A DNA stretch of 64,000 bases from an uncultured Actinomycetes bacterium. Lineage in GTDB: Bacteria; Actinomycetota; UBA4738; HRBIN12. The stretch spans positions 325,044 through 389,043 of the forward strand of contig CAWBVL010000007.1 of assembly GCA_963792215.1 (NCBI GenBank). Direction: 5' to 3'. The notes beneath the pieces are model-generated. The model made no database searches. It worked only from the letters and a program-made list of their open reading frames with translations, and had not been told where the DNA came from. This document shows, one piece after another, positions 2,738 through 64,000 of the stretch. Numbering within the stretch: the stretch's first letter is position 1; the number at the start of each line of letters is the position of its first letter. Both the position numbers and the translations under genes were made by a program.

Positions 2738-3917
2738 CTTCGATGTCCTGCGTTGCGGTGGCCGCGGCGAGCGCCTCGGCCCAGATCTGCTTGACCGGTC
2801 GGCCGGTCACCGCGGCGACCGCGGCGCAGTCGTCGTGCTCTGGCGCGACGTTCACGACCCGGCCGTCGAGCAGACCGATCTTGACGCGGACGGTGTGGCC
2901 GTCGATGTCGACCTCGCGCATCGCGCGGTCGAGCTCGTAGCGCTCGAGCCGTTGCACCCGCACCCCCAGCGTCGACGAGTTCGTGAGAAGCGTCTCGGCG
3001 AGCGTCCGCTCCTGATCCGGCCTGGCGAGGACACTGAGCAGCACACCCGGGCGGGCTTTCTTCATCTGGATCGGGACGGTCCACGCGTCGATCGCACCCG
3101 CGGTCATGCAGGCGTCGAGCACGTCGGGCACGAGCTCCGGAACGAGGTCGTCGACGTTTGCCTGAAGCAGGACCACGGCCGTGGTGGTCTGCGGCTCGTC
3201 GATCGCGTCGCCGATCGCGACCCGAACGATGTTGGGTCGAGAGGGGTGTTCGCGGGTTCCGACGCCGGTGCCGGTCGCGCGCAGCACCATCGCGGGGAGC
3301 TCGCCCCACGCATCGGCTGCCGTGACCACGATCGCCGCGCCCGTAGGCGTAACGAGCTCGCCGGGCGTGTCGACGCCGACCACCGGAACGCCGGCCAGCA
3401 GCGCCATCGTCGCCGGCGCCGGAAGCGGCATCACGCCGTGATCCATCTGGCCGATCCCACGGCCGAGCGGGACGGGCGCGCAGACGAGCCGTTCGATCTC
3501 GAGCGCGTCGAGCAGCGCGAAGACGCCGCAGATGTCGATCAGGGTGTCGTCGTCACCGAGCTCGTGCAGCACGACCTCGTTCCGATCGACACCGTGGACC
3601 GCGGCCTCGGCTCCGATCAGGCGATCGAGCGCATCGAGGGAACGCGAGCGGACACGTGGCGCCAACCGCGAGCCCGCGATGACCGCGCGCATCGCCTCGC
3701 CGGTGCGCCCGTGAGGCTCGGCCGACCGGACGTCCACATGCGTCGCGCGAAGGCGGGCGCGCACCGGTTGTGAGACGTCGAGACCGACGCCGTCGAGGCC
3801 GAGCGCGGCGATCGCCTCGTCGAGCGCGGACCGCGGTGCGCCCGCGTCCAACAGCGCGGCGAGCAGCATGTCGCCCGCCAGGCCGCCGACGGGGTCGACG
3901 TGGGCGACGCGGGTCAC
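2721..3917 (-). CDS. larC: LarC, nickel insertion protein (DUF111 family), single unsplit ORF
   Basis: N-terminus VAHVDPVGGLAGDMLLAALLDAG is typical of LarC. About 398 aa. Overlaps both larE and larB. Confidence 0.85.
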   Translation of the reverse strand: MTRVAHVDPVGGLAGDMLLAALLDAGAPRSALDEAIAALGLDGVGLDVSQPVRARLRATHVDVRSAEPHGRTGEAMRAVIAGSRLAPRVRSRSLDALDRLIGAEAAVHGVDRNEVVLHELGDDDTLIDICGVFALLDALEIERLVCAPVPLGRGIGQMDHGVMPLPAPATMALLAGVPVVGVDTPGELVTPTGAAIVVTAADAWGELPAMVLRATGTGVGTREHPSRPNIVRVAIGDAIDEPQTTTAVVLLQANVDDLVPELVPDVLDACMTAGAIDAWTVPIQMKKARPGVLLSVLARPDQERTLAETLLTNSSTLGVRVQRLERYELDRAMREVDIDGHTVRVKIGLLDGRVVNVAPEHDDCAAVAAVTGRPVKQIWAEALAAATATQDIEDAHAR

Positions 3918-7088: not shown

Positions 7089-8351
<1,263 letters not shown>

Positions 8352-8933: not shown

Positions 8934-10028
8934 TCACGCGGCACCTCGGAGTTCAGCGGTGGAGGCGAGCAGCTGGTGACTCAGCCTCGCGATGGCGCGA
9001 GCCGCTCGCGCGCGCGGTGGCAGCAGCCGGCCGTGATCCTGCAGGCGGGGCACGGAGGCATCGACCGGGAGCACCGCGACCGGCGCGCGGCCGAACACCC
9101 GCTCGACGTCGGCGGGCACGACCTCGCCGCGCGCCGCCCGATTGACGACGAACGACGTCCGGTCTTCGACACCGTCTGGCGCGATCCGCGCAAGCGTTCG
9201 GACCGTCGCACGGAACGAGGCGATGTCGAGCGCGAGCACCTCGACGACGGCATCGGCGGCGCGGAGGCTCGCGCGCGTGACGGGGTCGGTCCCGAGCCCC
9301 GTATGCAGGACGACCACGTCGGTGGATGCAGCCGCGAGGTCCACGACACGCGCGACCGAGCGCTCCTCGGGCGCGGGCGTATCCGGCGGCGCCGCGACGA
9401 TCACGCCGAACCCTTCGTGGTGCGGGAACACGGTCTCGGTGAACGAACCGGGTGTCATCTCATCGACGACGTCGCAGAGTTCCGACACGGGGTGCAGTCC
9501 CGCCGTGCCGTCGACGATCCCGAGCGCCGTCGCGACGTCGCCGCCGAATGGGTCGACGTCGACGAGCACGACCGACCGGTCGGCCGACACCGCGGCTCGG
9601 GCCAGGTGCGTCGCGACGAAGGTGCAGCCCGCGCCGCCACGCGAGGCGTGCACCGCGATCACCGTCGCGCGCCGCTCGAGATGCTTCGCGCCGACCGCGA
9701 ACCCTTCGACGTGGGCAATCAAGCGGTCGCGCTCCTCAGGCCACACGGTGAAGCCTCGGACCCCTGCTTCGATCGCCGCGCGAAGCGCGGCGATCGACTC
9801 CCGGCTCGCGATCGCGATGCACGGCGTCGGGCCAGAGACGGCGCCGGCGAACCGCGGCTCGGCGATCACCAGGTCCGGCTCGAGCTGCGTGACCGCGTCG
9901 GCGATCTGCCGCTCGCCGTCGGCCGTGGCCACCACGCGCACGGCGCCGCTGCGGTCGAGGAAGTGCAGCACCTCGTCGAGCACCTCCGGCGCCTCGATCG
10001 CGAGGACCACGCGCGTCGACCGTTCCAT
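8934..10028 (-). CDS. TadZ/CpaE/Ssd-like protein (receiver-like N domain plus ParA/MinD-like ATPase)
   Basis: N-terminal receiver-like fold (RVVLAIEAPEVLDEV...DLVIAEP). Deviant P-loop SRGGAGCTFVATHLA. First gene of the Tad operon. Confidence 0.75.
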   Translation of the reverse strand: MERSTRVVLAIEAPEVLDEVLHFLDRSGAVRVVATADGERQIADAVTQLEPDLVIAEPRFAGAVSGPTPCIAIASRESIAALRAAIEAGVRGFTVWPEERDRLIAHVEGFAVGAKHLERRATVIAVHASRGGAGCTFVATHLARAAVSADRSVVLVDVDPFGGDVATALGIVDGTAGLHPVSELCDVVDEMTPGSFTETVFPHHEGFGVIVAAPPDTPAPEERSVARVVDLAAASTDVVVLHTGLGTDPVTRASLRAADAVVEVLALDIASFRATVRTLARIAPDGVEDRTSFVVNRAARGEVVPADVERVFGRAPVAVLPVDASVPRLQDHGRLLPPRARAARAIARLSHQLLASTAELRGAA

Positions 10029-17845: not shown

Positions 17846-17938
17846 GGAGGCGTCAGGGTTCCTGGTGGGCCTCGCGGTCTTCAAAACCGTTGAGGGGGCG
17901 ACGAGCTCCCTGGCGGGTTCGATTCCCGTCCGCCTCCG
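17846..17938 (+). tRNA. selC: tRNA-Sec (anticodon UCA)
   Basis: Hand-folded. Acceptor GGAGGCG/CGCCTCC, 6-bp D stem, anticodon loop CTTCAAA (TCA at 17881-17883). Long variable arm (7-bp stem, 5-nt loop), T loop TTCGATT, discriminator G. CCA is not encoded. Confidence 0.85.
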
Positions 17939-49648: not shown

Positions 49649-51589
49649 GTGCTAGCGTCCGCGCGGATGGGTCGGCGCGCGGCGGTGCTGGTGCTCGCAG
49701 CGGCCATCGGCCTCCTCCTTCCGGGTGTCGCGCATGCGGATGCCGAGCCCGCAGCCGACGTGTCCGCGCTCGACGACGTGTTCGCATCCCAGGTCGTTCG
49801 CATCCAGCCGGGCCAGGCGGTCGAGTGGACCAACGACGGCGCGACGGTGCACACGGTGACCGCGAACGACGGCTCATGGGATTCGGGCACCCTCGACCCG
49901 GGAGCGGCCTTCATGCACACGTTCGACACCGCAGGCGTCTACCCCTACTACTGCCGCTACCACGGGGCCCCGAACCACGGGATGACGGGAACCGTCGTGG
50001 TCGGCGACGTGCCGCTGCCCGGCGCTCCGGCCGACGTCGGTCCCGGGACCGAACACGCGCCGCAGACGTTCGCGCCGACGCTGCACGTGCCGGCCGACTA
50101 TCCGACGATCCAGCAGGCGGTCGACCACGTGAAGCCGGGCGGCATGGTGTTGATCGCACCCGGCGTCTATCGCGAACAGGTCACGGTCACGACGCCGTTC
50201 ATCACGATCCGCGGCGAGGACCGCAACCGGACGATCATCGACGGCGAGTTCCAGCGGGCTTACGGGATCCAGGTGCTCGAGGCCGACGGCGTGGTGATCC
50301 AGAACCTCACGGCGCGACACGCGTTGCTCGATGGCTTCGAATGGAACGACGTGCACGGCTATCAGGGCTCCTACCTGACCGCGTACGACGACGGCGACTA
50401 CGGGATCTTCGCCTACGGCTCGGACTACGGGGAGATCGACCACTCGTACGCGAGTGGGCACCCGGACTCCGGGTTCTACATCGGGCAATGCTATCCGTGC
50501 CATGCGGTGATCACCGACGTCGAGGCGGTCGACAATGCCGCGGGCTTCTCGGGGACGAACGCGGGCGGCGACCTGGCCATCATCAACAGCGACTGGCACG
50601 ACAACCTCGCGGGGATCGTGCCGAACACGCTCGACAGCGAGCTCGGGCCGCCGCAGCGCGACGCGGTGATCGCAGGCAACTACGTCCACGACAACGGCAA
50701 CCCGGACGCACCCACGAAGGCGCTCACGTACCCGGCGTTCGGGATGGGCATCGCGGTCACCGGTGGGCGAGACAACCTGATCGCGGAGAACGTCGTGGAG
50801 GACTCCGCGACCTACGGGGTCATCGTGATGCCGATCGTCGACACGAACCTGTGGGTGACGTCGGACAACGTCGTCCGGGACAACATCGTGCGCCGAAGCG
50901 GACAGGCTGACCTCGCGCTCGGCGCGCCGACACAAGGCGGCGACTGCTTCGCCGGCAACGACGCGTCGACGAGCCAGCCGCCCGCGATCGAGAGCCTCTT
51001 TCCGTGCACCGGCGTGCAGCCGTTCCCGGCCGGCGGCGGCTCGATGGCGCCAACGATGTCCGCGTTGGCGCGCTACCTGGCGGTGCTCGGCGACACCGCC
51101 CCGGGCGGCGACTGGCGCACACAGCCGGCGCCGCCGCCGCAACCACAGATGGAGGGCGACCCCACCAAGGCGCCGCCCATCATATTGGTCGGCGGCCAGA
51201 ACGTGCCGCAGCCCTACACCATCCGCCCGACGAGCCAGGTCGTGCTCGCGGCCGGTCCAACCGTGTCCAAGGAGATCGCGATCATGGGGATGCCGCTGGC
51301 AACGTCGTGGGGAGGATTGCTCGTCGGGCTCTACGGCTACATCCTGCCGTTCGTGCTGTACGCGACGTGGGTCGCGGTCGCGATGTGGGACCTGATCCGG
51401 CAAGAATCGGCGCCGCTGCCGCACCGCACGCGGTGGATGCTGGTGGTGCTGGTCGTGCCGTTCCTCGGACCGCTGTTGTACTTCGCCTTCGGGCGGTCAC
51501 CGATCCCACGGCAGCTACGACTTGTTCTCACTGCCGGCGGGATCGTGGTGTACCTGCTGTTCCTCGGGCTGGGCGTGTTGATCAGCTAG
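49649..51589 (+). CDS. Secreted cupredoxin domain fused to a parallel beta-helix (NosD-like) domain and a C-terminal PLDc_N-type membrane anchor
   Basis: Signal peptide. Type-1 Cu ligand pattern H...YYCRYH...GM. Asn/Gly-rich beta-helix repeats. C-terminal WVAVAMWDLIR...VPFLGPLLYFAFGR. Alternative start at 49667. Confidence 0.75.
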   Translation: MLASARMGRRAAVLVLAAAIGLLLPGVAHADAEPAADVSALDDVFASQVVRIQPGQAVEWTNDGATVHTVTANDGSWDSGTLDPGAAFMHTFDTAGVYPYYCRYHGAPNHGMTGTVVVGDVPLPGAPADVGPGTEHAPQTFAPTLHVPADYPTIQQAVDHVKPGGMVLIAPGVYREQVTVTTPFITIRGEDRNRTIIDGEFQRAYGIQVLEADGVVIQNLTARHALLDGFEWNDVHGYQGSYLTAYDDGDYGIFAYGSDYGEIDHSYASGHPDSGFYIGQCYPCHAVITDVEAVDNAAGFSGTNAGGDLAIINSDWHDNLAGIVPNTLDSELGPPQRDAVIAGNYVHDNGNPDAPTKALTYPAFGMGIAVTGGRDNLIAENVVEDSATYGVIVMPIVDTNLWVTSDNVVRDNIVRRSGQADLALGAPTQGGDCFAGNDASTSQPPAIESLFPCTGVQPFPAGGGSMAPTMSALARYLAVLGDTAPGGDWRTQPAPPPQPQMEGDPTKAPPIILVGGQNVPQPYTIRPTSQVVLAAGPTVSKEIAIMGMPLATSWGGLLVGLYGYILPFVLYATWVAVAMWDLIRQESAPLPHRTRWMLVVLVVPFLGPLLYFAFGRSPIPRQLRLVLTAGGIVVYLLFLGLGVLIS

Positions 51590-51634: not shown

Positions 51635-52516
51635 TCATCCCGACAGCATGCGCTCGAGCTCGACGTAGAGCCCGCTGTGGTCGAGGTCTCCGTCGCCGGC
51701 GTCAAGCGCCCGCTGAAGCTGCGCGGCGACAACCTCGAAAGACGGGATCGGTGTCCCCGTGGCGTCCGCCGTTTCCTCCACGATCCGAGCGTCCTTACGG
51801 TGCAATCGGATACGGAAACCCGGGTCGAACGTCCGGTCGAGCATCCGCTGGCCGTGCACCTCGAGGATCTTGGAGCCCGCGAAGCCACCCAGCAGCGCCT
51901 CGCGCACCTTCGCCGGGTCGACGCCTGAACGCTCGGCGAGCAACAACGCCTCGGCCACCGCCTCGATCGTCGCGGCCACCACCAACTGGTTGCACGCCTT
52001 CGTCACCTGGCCCGCGCCCGACGGACCGACGTGGACGATGATCTTGCCGAGCACCTCGAAGATCGGCATCGCACGTGCGACGGCGTCAGCGTCGCCGCCG
52101 ACCATGATCGACAGGGTTCCATCGATCGCGCCGCGTTCGCCACCGCTCACCGGCGCGTCGAGCATCGCGACCCCACGCTTGGCGAAGGCTGCCGCCATCT
52201 CGCGGGTTGGCGCGGGGTCGATCGAGCTCATGTCGATCACGAGGGCGCCGGCCGCCACACCGTCGAGCACCCCACCCTCACCGGTGAGGACGAGTTCGAC
52301 ATCGCTCGTGTCGGGCAGCATCGTGATCGTCACGTCGCTCGCTGCGGCGACCTCGGCGGTGCTCGACGCCCGCGTCGCACCCCCGGCGACCACCTCATCG
52401 ACGGGCCCCGCGCTCCGCGAATGGACGGTGAGGGCCCGGCCGGCAGCGAGCAGGTTCATCGCCATCGGCTTGCCCATGATGCCGAGGCCGATGAACCCGA
52501 TGCGATCGTCGGCCAC
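51635..52516 (-). CDS. Beta-hydroxyacid dehydrogenase (tartronate semialdehyde / 3-hydroxyisobutyrate reductase family)
   Basis: IGFIGLGIMGKPMAMNL Rossmann, DAPVSGG, GAGQVTKACNQ. Confidence 0.85.
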   Translation of the reverse strand: MADDRIGFIGLGIMGKPMAMNLLAAGRALTVHSRSAGPVDEVVAGGATRASSTAEVAAASDVTITMLPDTSDVELVLTGEGGVLDGVAAGALVIDMSSIDPAPTREMAAAFAKRGVAMLDAPVSGGERGAIDGTLSIMVGGDADAVARAMPIFEVLGKIIVHVGPSGAGQVTKACNQLVVAATIEAVAEALLLAERSGVDPAKVREALLGGFAGSKILEVHGQRMLDRTFDPGFRIRLHRKDARIVEETADATGTPIPSFEVVAAQLQRALDAGDGDLDHSGLYVELERMLSG

Positions 52517-52520
52517 GACC

Positions 52521-53855
52521 TCAGTCCTCCATCGCGGCGTCGGCGATCGCGAGCGAGTGGTCGATGATCTCGAAGCCGTCGGCGAGCTGCTCCTCGGTGA
52601 TGCACAGCGGCGGGTTGGTCATCACGTTCCACCACCGGATGAACGTCGCGAGACCGTTGTCGAGCAGCGATCGGTTGAGCGCCTGCATGGTCTCGTTCAT
52701 CGAGTTGAACGGCGACAGCGGCTCCATCGTCTCGCGGTTCTTGACCAGCTCGATGATGCCGAACAGGCCGATGTTGCGGACGCGGCCGACGCTCGGGTGC
52801 TTGGCGGCGAGTTCCTCGTGGTGGCGCGCCATCACCGGCTCGAGGCGCTTCGCGTTGCCGACCAGGTCGTCCTGCTCGATCACGTCGATCGCGGCGATCG
52901 CGGCGGCAACGCCGAGCGGGTGCGTGTTGTACGTGAGACCGCCCCAGAACATGTGGTCGTCGAAGTAGTCGGCGATGTGCGGCGCGAGCGCGACGGCCCC
53001 GAGCGGCGCGTAGGAGGAGGTGAGCCCCTTCGCCGTGGTGAGCAGGTCGGGCACCACGCCCCAGTTGTCGACCGCGAACCACGCGCCGGTCCGGCCCCAG
53101 CCGCACATCACTTCGTCGGCGATCATCTGGATGCCGTAGTGGGTGCAGAGCTCGCGGACGCCCTGGAGGTAGCCGTCCGGCGGGATCAAGATCCCGTTCG
53201 TTCCGGTGACCGGCTCGAGGATGAACGCCGCGATCGTCTCGGGGCCCTCGAGCTCGATCGTCTCTTCCAACAGCGCGAGCGCGGTGTCGGCTTCTTCGAA
53301 CCCGCGCTTCGTGCCGTGGTACGGATCGAGCACATGCACGACGCCGGGCATCGGGGGCGCCTCGTTCGGCCACCGGCGTGGGTCGCCGGTGAGCGCCATC
53401 GTCGCGTAGGTCGAGCCGTGGTAGCTGCGGTACCGCGCGAGGATCTTCTGCCGGCCGGTGAACGCCTTGGCCATCTTCACCGCGTTCTCGTTCGCCTCCG
53501 CGCCGGCCAGCGTGAAGAAGGTCTTCTCGAGGTCGCCGGGCCACAGGCCGGCGAGCCGCTTGCCGAGCACCGCGCGGCCCTCGAAGGCGTGGAACGGCGA
53601 GATGTACGGCAGCTTCTCCGCTTGGCGGGCGATCGCCTCGGTCACGCGCTTGTCGCCGTGGCCGATGTTCACGCCCATCAGCTGCGAGCTGAAGTCGAGC
53701 CACCGGCGGCCGTCGACGCCATACATGTAGACGCCCTCGGCGCGGTCGATCGCGAGCGGCGACGCCTTGGACTGGATGTGCCAGTCGTAGAGCGTGTACC
53801 GCGTCGCGTCCGCGATGATCTGTTCGGCCGTCATAGCGCCGGTCTCGGTGCTCAT
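52521..53855 (-). CDS. Class III (omega) PLP aminotransferase
   Basis: LAGAEANE, ILEPV, ADEVMCGWGRTG, TTAKGLTS (PLP-Lys). ATGA overlap with the upstream ATPase gene. Confidence 0.85.
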   Translation of the reverse strand: MSTETGAMTAEQIIADATRYTLYDWHIQSKASPLAIDRAEGVYMYGVDGRRWLDFSSQLMGVNIGHGDKRVTEAIARQAEKLPYISPFHAFEGRAVLGKRLAGLWPGDLEKTFFTLAGAEANENAVKMAKAFTGRQKILARYRSYHGSTYATMALTGDPRRWPNEAPPMPGVVHVLDPYHGTKRGFEEADTALALLEETIELEGPETIAAFILEPVTGTNGILIPPDGYLQGVRELCTHYGIQMIADEVMCGWGRTGAWFAVDNWGVVPDLLTTAKGLTSSYAPLGAVALAPHIADYFDDHMFWGGLTYNTHPLGVAAAIAAIDVIEQDDLVGNAKRLEPVMARHHEELAAKHPSVGRVRNIGLFGIIELVKNRETMEPLSPFNSMNETMQALNRSLLDNGLATFIRWWNVMTNPPLCITEEQLADGFEIIDHSLAIADAAMED

Positions 53856-55030
53856 GCCTGCCCCTCTCCTGCGTCGTCGCCCTCGTCCGTCGCCGGCGCG
53901 GGACCCGACCCGACGATGTAGCTGTGCTCGGCCGCCCAGCGGAGCATCACGCTCTCGCCCGGATGCGGATCGACCGCGCCGACCTCGTCGTTCAGGCGAT
54001 GGACGGTGAGGCGCTCGCCGGTGCGCAGCAACACGATCAGCTGCGTGATCGACCCGAGATACACGACGTCGATCACCGTGCCGCCCACGTACGAGGCGCG
54101 GTCTTCGGCCGTGCCGTTCGCGAGCTTGATCCACTCCGGCCTGACGGTGATCTGCGCCCGCCCGTCGTCGTGACCCGACCCGGGATCGACCGCGAGGATG
54201 CGCTGTCCGTCGCCGAGATCCATCGCGAGCAGGCCGGCGTCAGTCCGGTCGACCCGCAGGTCGATCAGGTTCGACGTGCCGATGAACCCCGCGACGAAGG
54301 CGCTTGCCGGTCGCTGATACAGCTCGCGCGGCGTCGCCAGCTGCTCGACGACCCCCAGGTTCATCACCGCGATGCGATCGCTCATCGTCATCGCCTCCTC
54401 CTGGTCGTGCGTCACGTAGACGAACGTCGTCTCGGTGCGCTGCTGAAGCTCCTTCAGCTCGAGCTGCATCTCCTTTCGGAGCTTCAGGTCCAGGGCGCCG
54501 AGGGGTTCGTCGAGGAGCAGCGCCGCGGGACGGTTGATCAACGCCCGCGCGAGCGCGACCCGCTGTTGCTGCCCGCCGGACAGCTGCGTGGGCCGCCGGT
54601 CCTCAAGGCCGTCGAGCCGCACCGTGTGGATCACGTCGGTCATCCGCTCGGTGATGTCGGACTTCGAGAGCTTCTTGATCTTCGGGCCGAACGCGATGTT
54701 CTCCGCGACCGTCATGTGCGGGAACAGCCCGTAGGCCTGGAAGACCATGTTCACGTTGCGCTTCGCGGGCGGGACCGACGTGACGTCGCGGCCCTGCAGC
54801 ACGATCCGGCCCTCGTCCGGCATCTCGAAGCCCGCGATCATCCGCAGCGTCGTCGTCTTGCCACAGCCGCTCGGACCGAGCATCGAGAAGAACTCGCCGC
54901 CCGGGATCTGGATCGAGACGGCGTCGACCGCGGTGACGTCGTCGAAGTGCTTCGTGACGGCGTCGACGAAGATCTCGCCTTCGTGGCTCGTCGCGGTGGG
55001 CTCGGTGTCCGTGTCGGATGTCGCGCTCAT
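53852..55030 (-). CDS. PotA-like polyamine/amine ABC transporter ATP-binding protein
   Basis: GPSGCGKTT, LSGGQQQRVALARAL, LLLDEPLGALD. ATGA overlap with the permease gene. Confidence 0.85.
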   Translation of the reverse strand: MSATSDTDTEPTATSHEGEIFVDAVTKHFDDVTAVDAVSIQIPGGEFFSMLGPSGCGKTTTLRMIAGFEMPDEGRIVLQGRDVTSVPPAKRNVNMVFQAYGLFPHMTVAENIAFGPKIKKLSKSDITERMTDVIHTVRLDGLEDRRPTQLSGGQQQRVALARALINRPAALLLDEPLGALDLKLRKEMQLELKELQQRTETTFVYVTHDQEEAMTMSDRIAVMNLGVVEQLATPRELYQRPASAFVAGFIGTSNLIDLRVDRTDAGLLAMDLGDGQRILAVDPGSGHDDGRAQITVRPEWIKLANGTAEDRASYVGGTVIDVVYLGSITQLIVLLRTGERLTVHRLNDEVGAVDPHPGESVMLRWAAEHSYIVGSGPAPATDEGDDAGEGQA

Positions 55031-55905
55031 GTCTGGATCCTGTTCAGTCGGGCGAGCTTGTACGCCAGCAGGGAGAAGACGATCGACACGACCAGCATCA
55101 CGAGGTTCAGCGCCGAGCCGGCGCCCCAGTCGCCCGACCCGAGGATCAGGTCGCGAACGCGCTGGCCCATCATGTAGCTGCCCGTACCGCCGACGATGTC
55201 GGCGGTGACGAAGTCGGTGAGCATCGGGATGTAGACGAGGATCATCGCGATGAAGATGCCGGGCGCCGCGAGCGGGATCAGCAGGCGCTTGGACTGCACC
55301 CACCACCCGGCGCCGAGGTCGACGGCCGACTCGAACATCGACGCGTCGATCGCCTTCATCGCGGCATAGATGGGGATCGTCGTATACGTGATGTAGCTCG
55401 CGGCGAGCGTCACGATCACCGCGAACGGACTGAAGAGCAGCCACGTGATCGGCGGCCCAGGGATCATCCAGTTGACGATGCCGTTGCGGCCGAGGATCAC
55501 CTGCCAGGCGTAGATCTTGACGACGGGCGCGAGCTCGTCGGCGAGGACCAACGACAACAGCAGGAACAGCTCCCACCGCCCCGCTCGGAACACCATGTAG
55601 TACGCGAGCGGGATCCCGATCGCGAGCATGATGATCATCGCGGTCGTGCTCATCCACAGCGTCGTCCAGGCGATCTTCCAGTTGAGCGGGTCCGTCAGGA
55701 CGTCGGTGTAGTGCGAGAGCGTCCGGCCGCTCGAGGTGTTCGGCGGGAACTTCAGGATGCTCATGAACGCCATGATCACCATCGGTCCGAGGAACAGGAC
55801 GATCAGCAGGGTGACCGGCGCGAACAGGATCCCGAACGCGCCGCGCCCGCTCCCTTTTCGCCGTGAAGGCTTGGCCGGCGCGATCGCGACGTCTGCCGTG
55901 GCCAT
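55027..55905 (-). CDS. ABC transporter permease (PotB/PotC type)
   Basis: Six hydrophobic helices and the EAA-like loop MFESAVDLGAGWWVQSKRLLIPLAAP. Confidence 0.8.
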   Translation of the reverse strand: MATADVAIAPAKPSRRKGSGRGAFGILFAPVTLLIVLFLGPMVIMAFMSILKFPPNTSSGRTLSHYTDVLTDPLNWKIAWTTLWMSTTAMIIMLAIGIPLAYYMVFRAGRWELFLLLSLVLADELAPVVKIYAWQVILGRNGIVNWMIPGPPITWLLFSPFAVIVTLAASYITYTTIPIYAAMKAIDASMFESAVDLGAGWWVQSKRLLIPLAAPGIFIAMILVYIPMLTDFVTADIVGGTGSYMMGQRVRDLILGSGDWGAGSALNLVMLVVSIVFSLLAYKLARLNRIQT

Positions 55906-56823
55906 CTAGGTCTCGGCCGACGCGACCACGGCCTCACCTCCCGCGATGATGCCGCGTGTGGCGTCCTCGCCGCTGCGCGCCCGGAGGAACAACAGCGCGA
56001 CCGTGAGCAGGACCACCTGGATGATCGAGATCACCGTCGAGATCGCGTTGACGATCGCGGTGTGATCCGGGTTGCGGACGCTCGAGTAGACCCAGACGGG
56101 GAACGTCTGCTGGAAGCCGAGCGTGAACGCGCTGATCTCGTAGTTGTTGAACGACCAGGTGAACGCGAAGATCGCGCTCGCCGCCAACGCGGGCGCGATG
56201 TGGGGCAGGATGATGTAGCGGAGCACCTGCATCCGCGAGCAGCCGAGGTCGATCGCAGCCTCCTCCTGCACACGCTGGAACCGAAAGAGCTGCGCGCCGA
56301 CGATGGCCGTCACCAGCGGGAACGTGCAGACGACCTGGGTCGCGATCACGGTGTTGAGCGACAGATCGATCTTGAACCGCACGTAGAACATCAGCGCCGC
56401 GATCCCGATGATCAACCAGGGCAGGATCAACGGGGCGCCCACCAGCCCGGCCACCGCCGGGCGCGCGCGGAACCGGAACCGGGTCAGGCCGAACGCGGTC
56501 AGCGTGCCGAGCACGAGACAGATCGGCGCGACGATGCACGCCACGACGATCGAGTTCACGAGCGCGGCGTGCAGGAGCTGGTCGTGGAACGCGTCGGTGT
56601 ACCAGTGGACCGTGACGCCCTCGAGCGGGAACGCGAGCACGTTCGAGTCGTTGATGCTGAACAGCATCAGGATCACGAGCGGGCCGAACAGCACGAGGTA
56701 GACGACGAACAGGAACGCGCGCCACGACCAGGTGACCGCGTGCGAGCGGAACCGCACCCCCGCGGTCGGCGGGATGGCGGTCACCACACGGGCGGTCGCG
56801 CGCTCCGCGACGTTGGTCGCCAT
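55906..56823 (-). CDS. ABC transporter permease (PotB/PotC type)
   Basis: EAA-like loop QEEAAIDLGCSRMQVLRYIILPHIAP. Its stop abuts the next ATG. Confidence 0.8.
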   Translation of the reverse strand: MATNVAERATARVVTAIPPTAGVRFRSHAVTWSWRAFLFVVYLVLFGPLVILMLFSINDSNVLAFPLEGVTVHWYTDAFHDQLLHAALVNSIVVACIVAPICLVLGTLTAFGLTRFRFRARPAVAGLVGAPLILPWLIIGIAALMFYVRFKIDLSLNTVIATQVVCTFPLVTAIVGAQLFRFQRVQEEAAIDLGCSRMQVLRYIILPHIAPALAASAIFAFTWSFNNYEISAFTLGFQQTFPVWVYSSVRNPDHTAIVNAISTVISIIQVVLLTVALLFLRARSGEDATRGIIAGGEAVVASAET

Positions 56824-56835
56824 GGCCTCCCGGAC

Positions 56836-57942
56836 CTAGCTCGCCTTCACTTCGGTCCAGGCCGCGACCCACGCATCACGGTTCTCCGGGGGGCTCGCGG
56901 GGATCGCGTTCTGCAGGTGGAACGGCGCGTCGAGCGAGGCCTCCTGGATCAGCTGCGGCGACGCGAGCTTGAGCGTCTTCTCGTTCGCGATCTGGTAGTT
57001 CCAATGCTGCGCTTCGTACAGCTCCGCCTCGGGGCTCGAGTAGTAGTTCAACAGCGCGTAGACCGCGTCGAGGTTCTCGGGCGCGACGTTCGGCGTCATC
57101 CCGTACCCGCAGGCCCACAGGAACTGGCCTTCCTTCGCGACCGCGAACTTCGCGTTGACGCCCTCTTGTTGCAGGGCCTTGGCGGTGTCCGGGTAGCCGG
57201 AGCTGATCACGATCTCGCCGGACTTGAACAGCGACTTCACCTCGGCGTCGCCCTTCCAGAAGGTGCGGAACTGCGACTTGTGGTCGATCAGGTACTGCTT
57301 GACCTGATCGATCTGGTCCTGGTTCATGTTGATCGGGTCTTGGATCCCGAGCGTGAGGGCGCCGATCATGAACGCGGTGACGGCGATATCCTCCATCCCG
57401 GCGCGGCCCTGCCACTGCGGATCGAAGAGGTCGGCCCACGAGGTCGGCGGGGTGGTGACGACGTCGGCGTTGTAGACGATGCCTGATGTGCCCGCGTCGA
57501 CGGGCACCATGTAGATCCCGCCGTTGTACTGCACGCCCGGCAGCTGCTGCATCGACGGGAACAGATCGTTCCAGTTCGTCAGGCGGCTCTGGTCGAGCGG
57601 GGCGTAGATCCCCTTCTCGTCCATTTGGAGGGTCGCCTCGTCGACGCAGCTGTTCACGACGTCGGCGTCGAAGCCTGCCTGGATCTTGGCGATGGCCTCT
57701 TCGTTCGATCCCATCGACGACGTCTCGAGGTGGATGTTGGGGTACTGCTGTTCGAAGGCGGCGAGGTAGCCGGGGTCGAATCCGTCGGAATAGCTCAGCA
57801 GGCGGATCGTGCCGGTGATCGACGACGGATCGACCGAGCCGTGCGGTCCCGCGCTCGGCGGCGCCGAGGACCCGCCGCCACACGCCACACCCACGAGGGC
57901 GATCGCGATCGCAGCCGCACCCGCACGGACCCACCGTCCCAT
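56836..57942 (-). CDS. PotD/PotF-type periplasmic substrate-binding lipoprotein
   Basis: Lipobox ALVGVACGGGS, 368 aa, PotD-like pattern. Confidence 0.8.
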   Translation of the reverse strand: MGRWVRAGAAAIAIALVGVACGGGSSAPPSAGPHGSVDPSSITGTIRLLSYSDGFDPGYLAAFEQQYPNIHLETSSMGSNEEAIAKIQAGFDADVVNSCVDEATLQMDEKGIYAPLDQSRLTNWNDLFPSMQQLPGVQYNGGIYMVPVDAGTSGIVYNADVVTTPPTSWADLFDPQWQGRAGMEDIAVTAFMIGALTLGIQDPINMNQDQIDQVKQYLIDHKSQFRTFWKGDAEVKSLFKSGEIVISSGYPDTAKALQQEGVNAKFAVAKEGQFLWACGYGMTPNVAPENLDAVYALLNYYSSPEAELYEAQHWNYQIANEKTLKLASPQLIQEASLDAPFHLQNAIPASPPENRDAWVAAWTEVKAS

Positions 57943-58057: not shown

Positions 58058-58741
58058 TCAGCCGGCGTCCGCGGACGAAACGACGCCGGCGATCAGATCC
58101 CCCGCCTCCTCCGCATGCTCCGCGAACAGGCGAGCAGCCTTGTCCTCGTCGCCGGACGCGATGGCGTCGACCAAGGGCCGGTGCTGGCGGGACACCTCAT
58201 CAAGCGAACCCAACACGTCGCCGTCGAGGCGGAGCAGGGCGCGCAGGGTCGGGACGTATCGATCGAAGACCTCGACGATCCGGGCATTGCCCGAGAGTTC
58301 ACACAGGCCCTGATGGAACGCGAGGTCGGCGCGCGAGACCGCGGCCGCATCACCGGTGGCGACCGCGGCGTCGATGCTGTCCGCGAGCGCGCCGAGCTTC
58401 TCGAGCGCGCCCGGGTCGGGATCGCGCGCAAGTGTGCGGGCGGCGCGGCTCTCGAGCGCCGCGCGGAGCCCATAGATGTCGCGCACGTCGTCCGCGGACA
58501 TGCTGACGACGAACGTGCCGCGGCGCGGTTCCTCCTTGAGCAGCCCTTCGGAGCGCAGCAGCTTGAACGCCTCGCGCACCGGGCCTCGGCTGATCGCGAG
58601 TTGCTCGGCGATCTTCGCCTCGACGAGGTGCTCGCCCTGGCTGAACCCGCCGGACAAGATCTGTTCGCGGATCCTGTCGGCCGCGTCCTCGGCGAGCGAG
58701 CGCGGCGCGGTCAGTGGCTCGAGGGTCGTGTGGTCGTCCAT
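58058..58741 (-). CDS. GntR-family (FadR/FCD subfamily) transcriptional regulator
   Basis: wHTH GEHLVEAKIAEQLAISRGPVREAFKLLRSEGLL plus helical FCD-like C domain. Confidence 0.85.
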   Translation of the reverse strand: MDDHTTLEPLTAPRSLAEDAADRIREQILSGGFSQGEHLVEAKIAEQLAISRGPVREAFKLLRSEGLLKEEPRRGTFVVSMSADDVRDIYGLRAALESRAARTLARDPDPGALEKLGALADSIDAAVATGDAAAVSRADLAFHQGLCELSGNARIVEVFDRYVPTLRALLRLDGDVLGSLDEVSRQHRPLVDAIASGDEDKAARLFAEHAEEAGDLIAGVVSSADAG

Positions 58742-58799: not shown

Positions 58800-59258
58800 T
58801 CAGCCCTCTCCGCGGGCGCGCTTCATAGCCGCGTTGACCTCGTCCACGTCCAGGGTCATCGCGAAGAACCCGATCTCGGCCTCGTACACGGCCGGGTCGG
58901 CCTGCGCCTTCACCTCGTCCTCGAACACGTGCAGCACCGGGAGTCCCAACTGAACCCCCGCCAACGGACCCACCCAGGCCGGATCGCCGTCGCGGACCGT
59001 TTCGGCGGCCACCTCGACCGCTTCCGCGTCGGCCGCCCCGAGGATCACGACGATGCCGTCGGCACCGCACTCCTCGACGATCCGCTTGATCAACGCCTGG
59101 TTATCCGGATCCATGGCGCCCGAGGCCGTTCAGACGAAGCACTCGGTGCGCGTCTCGATCACCTCGGCGCCCGCGCTGCGCGCCACCGCGGCGATCGCCT
59201 CACCGGGAACGCTGTCACGCTCGCCGAGCGCGATCACCCATCTGCCTTCGAGCTGCAT
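58800..59258 (-). CDS. grdA: GrdA, selenoprotein A of a glycine/sarcosine/betaine-type reductase; in-frame TGA (59130-59132) read as Sec
   Basis: Joining ORFs 59130..59351 and 58800..59114 gives ...AGAEVIETRTECFV-U-TASGAMDPDNQ...AAETVRDGDPAWVGPLAGVQLGL..., matching the GrdA CFVUTAAGAMD and AGPLAGV blocks. ATG at 59258 follows GGAGGTG. Confidence 0.9.
59092..59120 (-). promoter_or_regulatory. Candidate SECIS hairpin for grdA
   Basis: Imperfect stem GGCGCC.UGGAU/AU..CCAGGCGUU with apical CCGG, starting 10 nt after the UGA. Hand-folded. Confidence 0.3.
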
Positions 59259-59661
59259 CCGTCGTCTCACCTCCTTCGGGTCGTGTTGCGTGAGTCTCCG
59301 TTGCTTGTCGCAGGTGCTCGGGGATCGGCGGGCCGACCGCCGGCGCGCCATCGAGTAGCCGCTCGATCGCTCGTTCGATCTGATCGGGCGTCGTGCCGTT
59401 GCTGGTGAGCCGCTCCACCTCGACGCCGTCGCGCATCGTCAGATACGCGGGCAACCCGGCGACGCGGAGGTCGCGGCACACCGTGCGGTTGTCGGGCGCG
59501 TTGACGGAGATGAAGCGCACGCGGTCGCCGTAGCGTTCGGCGAGCGTCTCGACCGCAGGCATCAGCGCGAGGCACGGCTGGCACTGCGGTCCCCAGATGT
59601 CGACGAGCACGTCGCCGCTGGACGCGAGCGCCTCGAACGTGTCGACGGTCGCTTCGATCAT
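59215..59661 (-). CDS. trxA: Thioredoxin with atypical CQPC active site and C-terminal extension
   Basis: VLVDIWGPQCQPCLALMP. ATG at 59661 follows GAGGAG. Its 3' end overlaps the grdA start by 44 nt. Confidence 0.8.
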   Translation of the reverse strand: MIEATVDTFEALASSGDVLVDIWGPQCQPCLALMPAVETLAERYGDRVRFISVNAPDNRTVCRDLRVAGLPAYLTMRDGVEVERLTSNGTTPDQIERAIERLLDGAPAVGPPIPEHLRQATETHATRPEGGETTDAARRQMGDRARRA

Positions 59662-59677
59662 GTCTCGGTGTCTCCTC

Positions 59678-60991
59678 TCAGGTTTCCAACGTGACGGACG
59701 CGCCATCCCACAGACGGGTAAGCCTGCCGAGGAACAGGGAGCCCTTCGCGATGAGCATGGTTCGGTGCAAGTCGCCGGCGGCCATGCGCACGAGCGCGTG
59801 CGGGAGCCAGGGGACCGCGCTCGCGATGTGCCCCTGCGTCGGCGCGAACCCGGGCATGCCGTGGTCACGCGCAAATGTCGGGATGGCGCTCTTGTCGAGC
59901 TCTCCGCGCACGACGCCGAGGCCCGCGAGCATCCGGTAGTTGCGGTTGGCAACGTCGCCGCCGCCCTGCGGCTCGGTGATCTCGGGGTTATGGATCTCGG
60001 TCGCGTAGGTGCCGACGTCGGTGATGGCGATGCCGAGCGAATCGAGCGGATCGCCGACGAGCGCCGTGAGCTGAGCCTGCGGCGCGACGCCCGCGCCCAC
60101 GGGCATCGTGCCGATCGCGTCGGCACGGACGACGGGCCCGTTCGACCCGTCGGCGGGCTCGAGCAAGATCGCGATGCCCGCGAGCACGTCCTCGAGGATC
60201 GGATAGCCGGCCGACAGCGCGCCCTCGAACTTCATGCCGAGCTTCGCGAGGGAACCGCCCGCCACGACGACCACCCGCTGCTCGATCCCAGCTTCGATCA
60301 GCGCGGCCGCCACGATGATCGCATGCACCGGAGCCGCGCAGAACGACTTGACGTCGATCGCGCTTGCCGCCGTGAGGTCGCACGACTCGGCGATCGCCTT
60401 CGCGACGTTGCCGCCGCCTCGCTGATAGCGATCGCCGACGGCTTCCTCACCGCAGCCGATCGCGTGGGTGATCGTGGCCGGATCGACGCCCGTGCGCCGG
60501 AGAAGATCGCGGAGCGCGCGCACGCCGCTGGCCTTGATGGCGAGGTTCTCGAGCAGCACGTCGGCTGCGAGCGACGGGTCAGCCTCGTGATCAGCGCGGA
60601 TCCAGCCCGCCTCGCTGTCGCGGTCGGTGAGCCGCAGCGCGCCCTCGGGCATGGCGTCGCCGTCGTCGATGAGGTCGAACTGGTCCGCTTGCCTCATGGC
60701 TTCGTAGAAGTCGGTCTGCCTGCCGATGTCACCGAACGCGCCGTCAGCGGACGCGTCCTCGACGGGCTGCTTCCACCACGGGCGCTCGCGATCCCACAGG
60801 TCCTCGGGTCGGAGGTTGCCGATCACGACCTGGTTGGGCGGATAAGCGACGGCGTCGTCGAAGGTCCGGAGCGATGTGGCGATCTCGGACCACCGGTGCG
60901 TCTCGCGGCGCGGCTTGGATCCGTAGCGCACGAGGTCGGGCACGTGATCGAGCACGAGCGATGTCGCGACGACGGCGGCGCGCGGGCTCAT
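59678..60991 (-). CDS. grdC: GrdC-like (reductase complex component C, beta subunit; thiolase/KAS-like)
   Basis: YQRGGGNVAKAIAE, KSFCAAPVHAI, HGMPGFAPTQGHIASAVP, IAKGSLFLGRLT match GrdC blocks as I recall them. ATGA overlap with the grdB stop. Only the last 437 aa of the 817-aa ORF are used. Confidence 0.8.
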   Translation of the reverse strand: MSPRAAVVATSLVLDHVPDLVRYGSKPRRETHRWSEIATSLRTFDDAVAYPPNQVVIGNLRPEDLWDRERPWWKQPVEDASADGAFGDIGRQTDFYEAMRQADQFDLIDDGDAMPEGALRLTDRDSEAGWIRADHEADPSLAADVLLENLAIKASGVRALRDLLRRTGVDPATITHAIGCGEEAVGDRYQRGGGNVAKAIAESCDLTAASAIDVKSFCAAPVHAIIVAAALIEAGIEQRVVVVAGGSLAKLGMKFEGALSAGYPILEDVLAGIAILLEPADGSNGPVVRADAIGTMPVGAGVAPQAQLTALVGDPLDSLGIAITDVGTYATEIHNPEITEPQGGGDVANRNYRMLAGLGVVRGELDKSAIPTFARDHGMPGFAPTQGHIASAVPWLPHALVRMAAGDLHRTMLIAKGSLFLGRLTRLWDGASVTLET

Positions 60992-62277
60992 CCGTCGATC
61001 TCCCACATGGTGCGAGGCGCGACGTCGGTCGCGAGCATGTCGACCGCGCGATCGAGGATGCGCACGCGGAGCGCCAGCTCGTCGCCGGCGGCGAGGGAGG
61101 GATCGCCGGTGGGGTACGTGATGGCGACGCCGCGCACGATCCGGTTCGCCCCGACCATCTGCGCGATCGTGGGGAGCGCCGTGATGAACACGGTCGGGAT
61201 CCCCATCCGCTCCAACTCCTTCGTCAGCGTTGCCCCGCAACGCGTTCCTGTGCCTCAGGTGCCGGTCAAGATGACCGCGTCGACCCCCGCGTTGCGGAGC
61301 TCGGCGCCGATCTCCTGGCCCATCCGGGTCGAAACCGCCACCGGCGTGTCGACCCCAGTCGTGGTGAAGAACTCGTCGTGGATCCGCCCGATCCGTCCCG
61401 CGGTGACGAGCGCGCGAGCGGCGTCCAACGGCACGAGACGGTCCGGGTCGCGGTTCGCCTGGGTCGTGTCGAAGCCCGCGTGGACCGAGAGGTAATCCTC
61501 GGGCGCGAGCTCGGCGCGATCGCCGATCGGATACCGCAGCCAGACGTTCGCATGGCGCGTCGGCAAGCGGTCCGGGTTCCCCTGCGGGACGCAGCCCGCT
61601 TCGGTCACGAGGGCGACGAGCGCCGTCGACGGATCGGCCAGGGGATCGGGCGGCGCAACGCGATCGGTCGGCGGCACGATCTCGGTGCGCACGTCGCCCG
61701 CGAGCTTGGCGAGCACCAGGCCGATCGCGCGCTCGGCCCCGAGCGCGCCCGAGCGCACGTTCACCCGGAGGCCCCGCGGCAGGTAACCCTCTTCGGTAGG
61801 CGAACCGACCGCCGCGCCCGACGCGAGCCTCGAGGCGAGCGAGGCGACGAGCGGCACAGCGTCGCGCATCCCGGACACGTTGGCGGTGGTGGGCACGATG
61901 TACGCGGCGCCTTCGCTCGCGAGCACACCGGGCGAGTCGGGTGTCATCGCGGCGACGACCGCGGTGCCGCGACGACCGAGCTCGCGTGCGAGGACGCCGC
62001 ACGCGTAGCCATACCGCCCCGAGCCAAACGATGGACCACAGACCACGACGTCCGCGCCGGCCTCCTCGATCCACGCGAGCAGCGTCGCGAGACAGTCGGC
62101 CTCGTGCAGCGCGAACCGGTCGTCCCCGCACGCGACCGTGAGATCGATCTTCAATCCCGCGGCGACGAACGCCCGGCCCGGGCCCTGCGGACCTTCGAGC
62201 CGCACCGGCTCATGGTCGGCGGCCTCTTCACCGCCGAGCCCGGCGAAGAACTGGTTCACGTAATGCACGACGGTCAT
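60988..62277 (-). CDS. grdB: GrdB-family selenoprotein B subunit; in-frame TGA (61255-61257) read as Sec
   Basis: N-terminus MTVVHYVNQFFAGLGGEE. Joining ORFs 61255..62439 and 60988..61215 gives AVILTGT-U-GTGTRCGATLTKELERMGIPTVFI...VGANRIV. ATGA overlap with the grdE stop. Confidence 0.85.
61227..61243 (-). promoter_or_regulatory. Candidate SECIS hairpin for grdB
   Basis: GCGUUGC-GGG-GCAACGC, a perfect 7-bp stem starting 12 nt after the UGA. Confidence 0.5.
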
Positions 62278-63527
62278 GCCGGCACCGCCGTCCACGGTCC
62301 GTCGCCCGTCTCCACACAGCTGCCCAGGTAGTGGACCATCGCGATCGCGCGCCCGGCCTCGCCGTCGCCACCACCGACGATGCGGTCCGGCGTCCACGCG
62401 GGGACGAGCTCGTCCTCGTTCCCGGTGCTGACGAGGCAATCCGCCTCGGCGACGTGATCGGTCAGGCCCCCGTTCGTTTCGCAGATCAACGCCGTCGTCG
62501 CGATGCCGCGCGACTCCAGCGCGTGCACGGTCAGCATCGTGTCCGTGTGCGAGTTGCCCGACGAGAACGTCGTGCAGATGGCACCGGCCGCGTCGAGCTC
62601 GGCCGCGAGGACCGCCGATGCCTCGGCGCCGCGCCGCTTCGCCTCAGCCGTGTCGAGATACCCGGGCGCGAGGATCAGGCCGGCGAACCGCAGCGTGTCA
62701 CCGTGTGCTCGCTCGAGCGCGCGCACGAGCGCGAGGTCTTGATAGTTGGCCGTCGTGTTGCGGACGCCCGGCCAGTCGTAGGCGCCGTTCGTCAGTCGGC
62801 CGGCGTTGAGCCAGACAGGATCGATCACCCTCGGCATCAGGTCGCGCAGATCGTCGCCGTCGAAGAACGTGTCGGTGAGCGGGCCCTCTGACGCGACCTG
62901 CAGGACCGCGCACACGGCGGGAAGGTCCGGGTCTGCATCCTCACGTACGCCGACGTGCCACACGTCGTCCGCCACCGCATCGAGCGTGGTGGCGGCGAGG
63001 GTCCGCGCGATGTCGAGCGCTGTCCGTCGGATCGCGGCGTCCGCATCCGCGATGGACGCGCCTCGCGCCGGCACACAGCGCAGCACCACGTTCGCGGTCG
63101 AGCCCCACGGGGTCCGGTCCTGACCGGGTCCCGACATATCCACGTATGACGGCGGGAACTCCTCGGGCCCGACGAGACCCGCCGCTTTCCAATCGCAGAC
63201 GGGCAGCACGGCGACGCCGGCGATCCGATGGATCCGCGCGTGCGAGGTGTCGTCCCATGTTCCGCCGAGCACGCCGGGGAAGGTCGCAGCGGGATCGTCG
63301 GCCCGGACATCGGGCACGACGGCGTCGAGCACGTTCGTGATTCGGACGCGATCGCCGGGACGGACGACCTCGACCGTGGCCTCCGCCAGTGCCGGTTCTC
63401 CGGCTCCGACCGCGAGCTGCGGTGACGCCACAAGCAACGTTGCGCCGTCCCGCCCTGTCAGGGTCCCCTCGACGACCTCGTCGATCGCGAACGCCGCGAT
63501 CTCGAGATCAGCGCGGGTATGTGACAA
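62274..63527 (-). CDS. grdE: GrdE/GrdG/GrdI-like substrate-specific proprotein of component B
   Basis: 417 aa, placed immediately upstream of and overlapping grdB. Overall Gly_reductase-family pattern (call is partly by position). TTG start, uncertain. Confidence 0.7.
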   Translation of the reverse strand: MSHTRADLEIAAFAIDEVVEGTLTGRDGATLLVASPQLAVGAGEPALAEATVEVVRPGDRVRITNVLDAVVPDVRADDPAATFPGVLGGTWDDTSHARIHRIAGVAVLPVCDWKAAGLVGPEEFPPSYVDMSGPGQDRTPWGSTANVVLRCVPARGASIADADAAIRRTALDIARTLAATTLDAVADDVWHVGVREDADPDLPAVCAVLQVASEGPLTDTFFDGDDLRDLMPRVIDPVWLNAGRLTNGAYDWPGVRNTTANYQDLALVRALERAHGDTLRFAGLILAPGYLDTAEAKRRGAEASAVLAAELDAAGAICTTFSSGNSHTDTMLTVHALESRGIATTALICETNGGLTDHVAEADCLVSTGNEDELVPAWTPDRIVGGGDGEAGRAIAMVHYLGSCVETGDGPWTAVPA

Positions 63528-63538
63528 GCTCTGAGAGC

Positions 63539-64000
63539 TTACGCTCCGCCGGCCTCGTCCGGAAGAGGCGGCGCCGCGGAGCGGTCGTACCAGTCGCCAC
63601 CGCCGAGCTCACCTCCGTCGACGATGATCGTCTGACCCGTGATCCACGCGGCGTCGTCGGACGCGAGGAACAGCACGGCCATCGCTTGATCGCGGGGCGA
63701 ACCTGCACGGCGAAGCGGGATCTTGCGCAGGTACTCGCGTTGCAAGCGCGCCTCGTCGGGATCGGCGGCCATCTCGGCGGCGCCCTCCGGCGTCACGGTC
63801 TGTCCCGGCGCGACGGAGTTCACACGGATGCCGAGATGCCCCCACTCGTGTGCGGCCGCTTTCGTGAGCGCGACGAGCGCGGCCTTCGACGCGTTGTACG
63901 CGGCCTCGGGCGATTCGTTCTTGAAGGCGTTCGCGGACGTGATGTTCACGATCGCGCCACCGCCGTGTTCCGCGAGATGCGGCGCGATCGACTGCATCGT
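63539..64000 (-). CDS. SDR-family oxidoreductase, C-terminal part (gene runs off right edge)
   Basis: YNASKAAL catalytic Tyr/Lys motif, NSVAPG, ITGQTIIVDGG. Its stop lies 11 nt upstream of grdE. Confidence 0.8.
   Translation of the reverse strand, partial: TMQSIAPHLAEHGGGAIVNITSANAFKNESPEAAYNASKAALVALTKAAAHEWGHLGIRVNSVAPGQTVTPEGAAEMAADPDEARLQREYLRKIPLRRAGSPRDQAMAVLFLASDDAAWITGQTIIVDGGELGGGDWYDRSAAPPLPDEAGGA

Follow-up and report, generated by a model that had tools for sequence, protein, structure and literature searches.

A Grd-type operon in an actinobacterial genome

We analysed a 64,000-nucleotide stretch of DNA (contig CAWBVL010000007.1, positions 325,044 to 389,043; hereafter the window) from an uncultured Actinomycetes bacterium, and describe here an operon at its far end that encodes a selenoprotein reductase of the Grd type. 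Grd enzymes are seen as rare selenoenzymes with which strict anaerobes conserve energy by way of acetyl phosphate. The window has a guanine-plus-cytosine (GC) content of about 70%, and DNA past its edge was read in relatives only. The operon consists of five closely spaced genes on the minus strand (63527..58800), in the order grdE-like, grdB-like, grdC, trx and grdA. A preceding interpretation of the same DNA, the sequence-only reading, had described a five-gene minus-strand selenoprotein operon of this type in an actinobacterial genome, and its coordinates, ATGA overlaps, product lengths and peptide contexts are correct.

The grdE-like gene (63527..62274) has a TTG start and encodes a 417-residue alpha-type subunit of protein B (PF09338, 192 bits), to which a public sequence, P0001, is 100% identical. 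It is followed by the gene for a GrdB-like selenoprotein B (62277..60988; PF07355, 337 bits), which is 429 residues long when an in-frame TGA at 61257..61255 is read through, placing selenocysteine (Sec) at residue 341 in the motif GT-U-GTGTRC. The beta subunit of component C is encoded by grdC (60991..59678; 437 residues), which scores 504 bits with NF040746 against a cutoff of 450 and contains DUF5940. The thioredoxin gene trx (59661..59215; PF00085, 52 bits) has a CQPC motif, and the last gene, grdA (59258..58800), encodes the 152-residue selenoprotein A (PF04723; NF040748, 190 bits against a cutoff of 130), with its Sec codon at 59132..59130 in the CxxU motif C-F-V-U. Profile searches with PF09338, PF07355 and TIGR01918, NF040746, Thioredoxin and NF040748 thus support the families to which the sequence-only reading had assigned the five proteins.

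The ATGA overlaps at the E/B (62277..62274) and B/C (60991..60988) junctions are seen directly in the sequence, and an AGGAGG ribosome-binding site lies 5' of grdA. A scan for promoters and terminators yielded nothing exceeding background. The stop codon that follows ...QAT in the trx genes of relatives (121 residues) has been lost in the window, which adds 27 residues (59215..59300 region, minus strand) and makes the extended trx overlap the start of grdA by 44 nucleotides. Among NCBIfam models, the clostridial Grd-type TrxA comes closest to this thioredoxin, with 88 bits, under the cutoff of 140.

Scanning one genome per species, we collected 80 related loci, all from metagenome-assembled genomes (MAGs) of Actinomycetota (Actinomycetes, Thermoleophilia, Gaiellales and Streptosporangiaceae). 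The operon type is present in at least 80 species-level genomes of soil Actinomycetota and in hundreds of metagenome protein clusters.

Selenocysteine decoding

In alignments, both TGAs of the window fall on the Sec codons of GrdA and GrdB/F/H proteins annotated in three reference organisms, Acetoanaerobium noterae, Peptoclostridium acidaminophilum and Enterococcus gilvus, the reference operons of which came from a plasmid collection. The same codons recur in relatives. We counted every sequence that includes the region, from the 80 related loci, the window and one additional contig of a relative: the Sec column of grdA is TGA in all 63 sequences, and that of the grdB-like gene is TGA in 73 sequences, with the coding sequence kept on both sides. 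Locus L037 (MAG MFD09206.bin.3.351, 12238-12240) has TGC, a Cys codon, at the GrdB Sec position, and its own grdA retains TGA. This replacement corresponds to the Sec/Cys pairing that is typical of true selenoproteins.

A hairpin resembling a Sec insertion sequence (SECIS), GCGUUGC-GGG-GCAACGC, begins 11 nucleotides past the UGA of the grdB-like gene (61243..61227, minus strand). Across 71 distinct sequences six of its pairs are 100% paired, and pair 18-28 is U-A in 49, C-G in 19 and U-G in 3, a compensatory change. In L037, the locus with the Cys codon, the stem carries a disrupting U-to-G change (GCGGTGC) and the hairpin is weakened. Single-sequence fold energies of the regions following the two UGA codons were not better than those of shuffled sequences.

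The window also contains a tRNA-Sec gene, selC, with anticodon UCA (17846..17937, plus strand), about 41 kb from the operon. It scores 73.8 bits with Rfam RF01852 (gathering score 47), and ARAGORN agrees. The sequence-only reading had named a lack of Sec-insertion genes as something that would refute it; for tRNA-Sec, this no longer applies. The open reading frames flanking selC (HAD-like and adenylate-cyclase-like) do not resemble selA, selB or selD, at which no dedicated search was aimed.

Could the two genes be interrupted, as pseudogenes or through assembly errors, and the operon be non-functional? Mechanical calling of open reading frames does split both grdA and grdB, and the stop codon of trx is lost in the window. 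Against this stand the TGAs, which recur at one and the same codon between conserved stretches of coding sequence in 63 and 73 independent assemblies, and we give this explanation next to no chance. We take both TGAs to be Sec codons and not errors, as had been proposed, because of their recurrence in relatives, the Cys codon of L037, the covariation in the hairpin and the tRNA-Sec gene in the window.

The GrdE-like subunit carries tyrosine at the pyruvoyl position

Tyr250 of the GrdE-like protein (TNGA-Y-DW) aligns with Cys242 (SGN-C-VSAC) of A. noterae GrdE, which is given as the pyruvoyl-forming residue (Bednarski et al., 2001, as cited in PMC10838667). The matching Cys is kept in P. acidaminophilum GrdG, and the betaine-type GrdI has Phe in this column. 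FarE and GrdI are without the processing cysteines and are not proproteins (PMC10838667). Tyr250 is invariant among 20 diverse members of the clade. The sequence-only reading had called the GrdE-like subunit a proprotein; this designation is unsupported, because the cleavage Cys is replaced by an invariant Tyr, and the subunit is predicted to be neither a proprotein nor the carrier of a pyruvoyl group.

Among the 110 nearest full-length representatives of 50%-identity clusters, the Cys242 column holds Tyr in 65, Phe in 16 and Cys in 8, and the Tyr type therefore makes up a large uncharacterised share of the family. The window protein is far from the specific models, scoring 121 bits with that of GrdG (NF040793; cutoff 780) and 49.8 bits with that of FarE (NF053623; cutoff 675).

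The GrdB-like selenoprotein lacks substrate-specific signatures

The GrdB-like protein is recognised by the subfamily model TIGR01918 (380 bits against a cutoff of 65), and is under the cutoffs of all substrate-specific models: those for glycine (TIGR01917, 350 against 602), sarcosine (NF040794, 374 against 800) and betaine (NF040795, 345 against 775). It also lacks both published motifs by which GrdB and GrdF are recognised, taken from Nobu et al. (PMC9751293). The redox motif is UxxGxxC (U-G-T-G-T-R-C) in the window and in all 73 clade sequences, as opposed to UxxCxxC (U-G-T-C-T-R-C) in GrdB, GrdF and GrdH, a motif named in PMC13188914. A second motif, HAGFD, is common to the GrdB-like protein and E. 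gilvus GrdH, which are 36% identical; GrdB and GrdF carry HGGYD.

A search of the GrdB-like protein against the Protein Data Bank (PDB) gave no sequence match. D-proline reductase, PrdAB, was considered as a candidate and rejected: the PrdB model TIGR04483 scores 84 bits against a cutoff of 300 and covers residues 258-393 only, and the presence of GrdA and GrdC also speaks against it.

Component C and the local absence of GrdD

Partners of GrdC were sought by tblastn and by profile, with a GrdD profile built from two GrdD sequences and with loci extending up to 10 kb on each side. In the 64-kb window and the 80 related loci the GrdD profile matched nothing, even with the threshold at E<=10. 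The same profile scored 453-780 bits in three reference loci, that of the distant Photobacterium included, and a GrdC profile built in the same way matched 70 of the 80 related loci at E<1e-130. The window GrdC is itself a short form, which in alignment is without the internal insert of about 36 residues and the C-terminal tail of about 30 residues of canonical GrdC. GrdD reportedly bears the active-site thiol that forms acetyl phosphate. The repeated absence of grdD from the operon is functionally meaningful because grdC, trx and grdA are retained while the missing subunit is the one that carries this thiol.

Thioredoxin reductase, TrxB, is absent from the window by tblastn and by profile, the only profile matches being weak ones to the flavin adenine dinucleotide (FAD) motif. 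Its absence from the operon is uninformative, because thioredoxin reductase is a housekeeping gene. The sequence-only reading had reported that both grdD and trxB are missing from the whole window, and the two search methods agree with it; taken alone, this absence carries little weight, with the operon at the window edge and with trxB loss saying nothing. It had concluded that component C works differently or that the partners are encoded elsewhere. The first option is now the better supported, grdD being absent at about 70 operons and the tail of GrdC being lost.

Relatives outside the clade and isolated gene pairs

The Tyr-type arrangement without GrdD also exists outside Actinomycetota. 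Loci L091 and L092 (GCA_023382375.1; 55% GC, with sporulation genes) have the order E-B-C-trx-A, no GrdD and a short GrdC tail. Tyr-type relatives outside the clade, these two among them, are 33-36% identical to the window protein. In the selenoprotein B of L091 the motif is T-U-GTGTRS (UxxGxxS), so that both Cys of CxxC are gone. The surroundings of this operon (L091:8966-14964) include LacI and sugar genes, with a phosphodiesterase-family gene, an amidohydrolase gene and one for a SIS-domain protein nearby.

On a metagenome contig of 69% GC (L089:1626-10894), an oligopeptide-type ATP-binding cassette (ABC) transporter, two Tyr-type GrdE-like genes and a UxxGxxC selenoprotein B stand in a row with a gene for a 709-residue protein resembling ADP-forming acyl-coenzyme A (acyl-CoA) synthetases, which adjoins a GrdC-like gene; GrdD is missing here as well. 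This locus is the sole hint that GrdC may deliver acyl-CoA.

Three further loci (L032, L036 and L056, with grdE-like at 10001 in each) have a grdE-like/grdB-like pair without grdC, trx or grdA within 10 kb. By analogy with clostridia and Synergistota, such pairs may be extra substrate-specific B components for a shared A/C system.

Genomic neighbourhood

Twelve nucleotides upstream of the grdE-like gene lies an open reading frame for the 3' part of an SDR gene (glucose-1-dehydrogenase-like; 63539..64000, minus strand), which leaves the window. In close relatives the region upstream of the operon holds genes for a CrtI-like FAD oxidoreductase, a class-III aminotransferase, an NHL-type beta-propeller and an SDR, with overlapping junctions. 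Directly 3' of grdA is a gene for a GntR/FCD-family regulator (58058..58741, minus strand), the nearest model of which is phnR_burk (152 bits, under the cutoff of 271). It is followed on the same strand by a PotD/PotF-type ABC transporter (53852..57942), comprising a binding protein (57942..56836), two permeases (56823..55906 and 55905..55027) and an ATPase (55030..53852).

The stop of the ATPase gene shares an ATGA overlap with a class-III aminotransferase gene (52521..53855, minus strand). The orthologue of this enzyme in locus L002, 97% identical to the window gene, scores 519 bits with NF004718 (cutoff 472), and the best solved relative of the window protein is 6JIX, a taurine:2-oxoglutarate aminotransferase, at 360 bits (runner-up, 256 bits). 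Starting 4 nucleotides past the aminotransferase is a gene for a beta-hydroxyacid dehydrogenase resembling tartronate-semialdehyde reductase (51635..52516, minus strand), with 342.4 bits for TIGR01505 (cutoff 340.75) and 260 bits for PDB entry 1YB4.

Among 30 fully flanked loci of the closer subclades, the propeller is kept in 26, the SDR in 25, and the FAD enzyme and the GntR regulator in 22 each. The Thermoleophilia/Gaiellales subclade has the five-gene core only, and the neighbours are not kept. The neighbourhood suggests that an amine-type compound is imported and broken down with the help of the reductase; we infer that the operon is embedded in a conserved amine-catabolism cluster and works for the neighbouring catabolic genes.

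Elsewhere in the window, genes for a type II/IV secretion ATPase (7092..8351, minus strand) and a ParA/CpaE-like ATPase (8937..10028, minus strand) fit the Tad pilus context described in the sequence-only reading. A LarC-type nickel-insertion protein is encoded at 2724..3917 (minus strand). On the plus strand, 49649..51589 encodes a 646-residue protein in which a cupredoxin-like N-terminus is combined with a right-handed beta-helix and, at the C-terminus, a PLDc_N membrane segment. The UxxGxxC motif, the failure of the substrate-specific models, the tRNA-Sec gene and the conserved catabolic neighbourhood are additions to that reading.

Interpretation and alternatives

On balance, we favour the view that the operon encodes a distinct, non-pyruvoyl and probably GrdD-independent subtype of Grd system, which the sequences portray as a functional Sec-dependent reductase and not as a classical glycine reductase. 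The substrate is probably neither glycine nor sarcosine, and the last step probably differs, because none of the relatives encodes a GrdD alongside the operon. We infer the chemistry, the substrate class and the fate of the acyl group by homology with Grd. Protein B, formed by the GrdE-like and GrdB-like subunits, would bind a substrate of the type X-CH2-COO- or one closely analogous to it. Without a pyruvoyl group in protein B there would be no Schiff-base activation, and X would have to depart unaided, like trimethylamine from betaine or fluoride from fluoroacetate in the respective reductases; these two substrates provide precedents for leaving groups without such activation (PMC10838667). 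The carboxymethyl group would be taken over as a selenoether, first on the B selenoprotein and next on GrdA, in each case by Sec. Electrons would come from the thioredoxin of the operon, itself reduced by a housekeeping thioredoxin reductase, and the two-carbon unit would be captured by GrdC as a thioester. Its release would not proceed via GrdD, normally the maker of acetyl phosphate; CoA transfer, hydrolysis or an unrelated partner might take its place.

Several observations weigh against this view. The exclusion of GrdD covers the 64-kb window and the 10 kb around the operons, and the subunit could be encoded elsewhere; no homologue of ADP-forming acyl-CoA synthetases was found near the actinobacterial operons. 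GrdA and GrdC are ordinary family members, whose sequences are compatible with the classical reaction. The prediction of a non-pyruvoyl alpha subunit comes from alignment, and a different residue could be processed. No conserved helix 3' of the grdA UGA was found by RNAalifold, by a search for any helix or in single-sequence folds; a candidate stem (+11..+14/+25..+28) is weak, as its variable pair forms in 31 of 55 sequences, where shuffles give 24.7. The substrate hints from the neighbouring genes are weak and mutually inconsistent (a sub-threshold phosphonate-type GntR regulator, a PotD-like protein, a taurine-aminotransferase-like and a tartronate-semialdehyde-reductase-like enzyme, a CrtI-like FAD enzyme and an NHL propeller), and we assign no substrate from them. 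Finally, all the relatives are MAGs.

Two established activities have to be considered in place of a distinct subtype. The operon could specify an ordinary glycine or sarcosine reductase, with GrdD and thioredoxin reductase encoded elsewhere in the genome and its peculiarities reflecting lineage drift. The scores of GrdA (190 against 130) and GrdC (504 against 450) do exceed equivalog cutoffs, relatives carry public labels such as 'glycine reductase' or 'glycine/sarcosine/betaine reductase component B subunit', and the search for GrdD covered the window and the surroundings of the related operons. Yet the Cys needed for pyruvoyl formation and Schiff-base binding of glycine or sarcosine is an invariant Tyr, the B selenoprotein is well under the GrdB and GrdF cutoffs and has neither published motif, and grdD is missing beside about 70 operons that keep grdC, trx and grdA. 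Taken together, these points make an ordinary reductase quite improbable.

A betaine reductase of the GrdHI type, converting glycine betaine to trimethylamine and an acetyl unit, would account for an alpha subunit without the processing Cys, as in GrdI (PMC10838667), and for the HAGFD motif shared with E. gilvus GrdH. It would not account for the GrdH model fitting no better than those of GrdF and GrdB, nor for the loss of the UxxCxxC motif that GrdH keeps. The linked transporter is PotD/PotF-like and no betaine transporter of the BCCT or ProX type is present, the reference betaine operon has grdD, and the conserved aminotransferases, FAD oxidoreductase and SDR would be without a role in betaine cleavage. 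We consider betaine reduction rather unlikely.

Returning to the distinct Grd subtype, we can extend it, tentatively and with more doubt than conviction, to a new class of Sec reductase that is widespread in soil Actinomycetota and has sister forms in other phyla. Such an enzyme might reductively strip a carboxymethyl-type compound of a leaving group that is either no amine or permanently charged. GrdC alone might then release the two-carbon unit, as free acid or CoA thioester, with no acetyl phosphate being made by GrdD. Candidate substrates would be sulfoacetate formed from amines of the taurine kind, an acetate bearing a sulfonium or quaternary group, or a carboxymethyl compound of sugar origin. 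If this extension is true, it would add a new reaction to the turnover of carbon, nitrogen or sulfur in soil.

If the operon is active, selenium-dependent reductive chemistry takes place in abundant uncultured soil bacteria. The operon lacks the cofactor-forming residue by which specificity for glycine and sarcosine is defined, a portion of the motif to which protection of Sec is ascribed, and the subunit responsible for acetyl phosphate. The operon is a natural test of what GrdC is capable of without GrdD. The automatic labels 'glycine reductase' and 'sarcosine reductase' for genes of this clade are probably misleading.

Comparison with known systems

In the literature searched, we found no description of an actinobacterial or a GrdD-less Grd system. 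At the level of the superfamily the operon is recognised by its GrdA, its GrdC and a Sec-containing protein B; every substrate-specific test and the test for GrdD were negative. With the GrdABCDE system of Peptostreptococcales (Acetoanaerobium sticklandii/noterae and P. acidaminophilum) it has in common a GrdA with Sec in a CxxU motif, Sec in the same column of the B selenoprotein, a partner of the GrdE family, GrdC and a dedicated thioredoxin. It differs in having Tyr for Cys242, UxxGxxC for UxxCxxC and a shorter GrdC, in the absence of grdD, trxB and grdX from the operon, and in its host, an actinomycetote of about 70% GC. The gene order also differs, E-B-C-trx-A in the window against grdX-trxB-trxA-grdE-grdA-grdB-grdC-grdD in A. 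noterae; the reference locus of P. acidaminophilum contains grdG, grdF and grdA.

The betaine reductase GrdHI (E. gilvus, locus L085; characterised in P. acidaminophilum) resembles the window system in its alpha subunit without the processing Cys, in the HAGFD motif and in a GntR regulator nearby. GrdH, however, retains UxxCxxC, and the E. gilvus operon (trxB-trx-grdA-grdC-grdD-grdI-grdH) has grdD, trxB and a BCCT transporter. The fluoroacetate reductase FarBE of Cloacibacillus (PMC10838667) likewise has an alpha subunit that is not a proprotein and a selenoprotein without the full CxxC, and demonstrates that the Grd scaffold is able to act on non-amine leaving groups (PMC10838667). Whereas the far operon encodes protein B only and borrows GrdA, GrdC and GrdD, the window operon carries its own GrdA, GrdC and Trx.

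The systems of L091/L092 and L089 share with the window Tyr in the Cys242 column, the lack of GrdD and Gly in place of the first Cys of UxxCxxC. Their neighbours differ from those in the window, with LacI and sugar genes in L091 and the oligopeptide ABC transporter and acyl-CoA-synthetase-like gene in L089.

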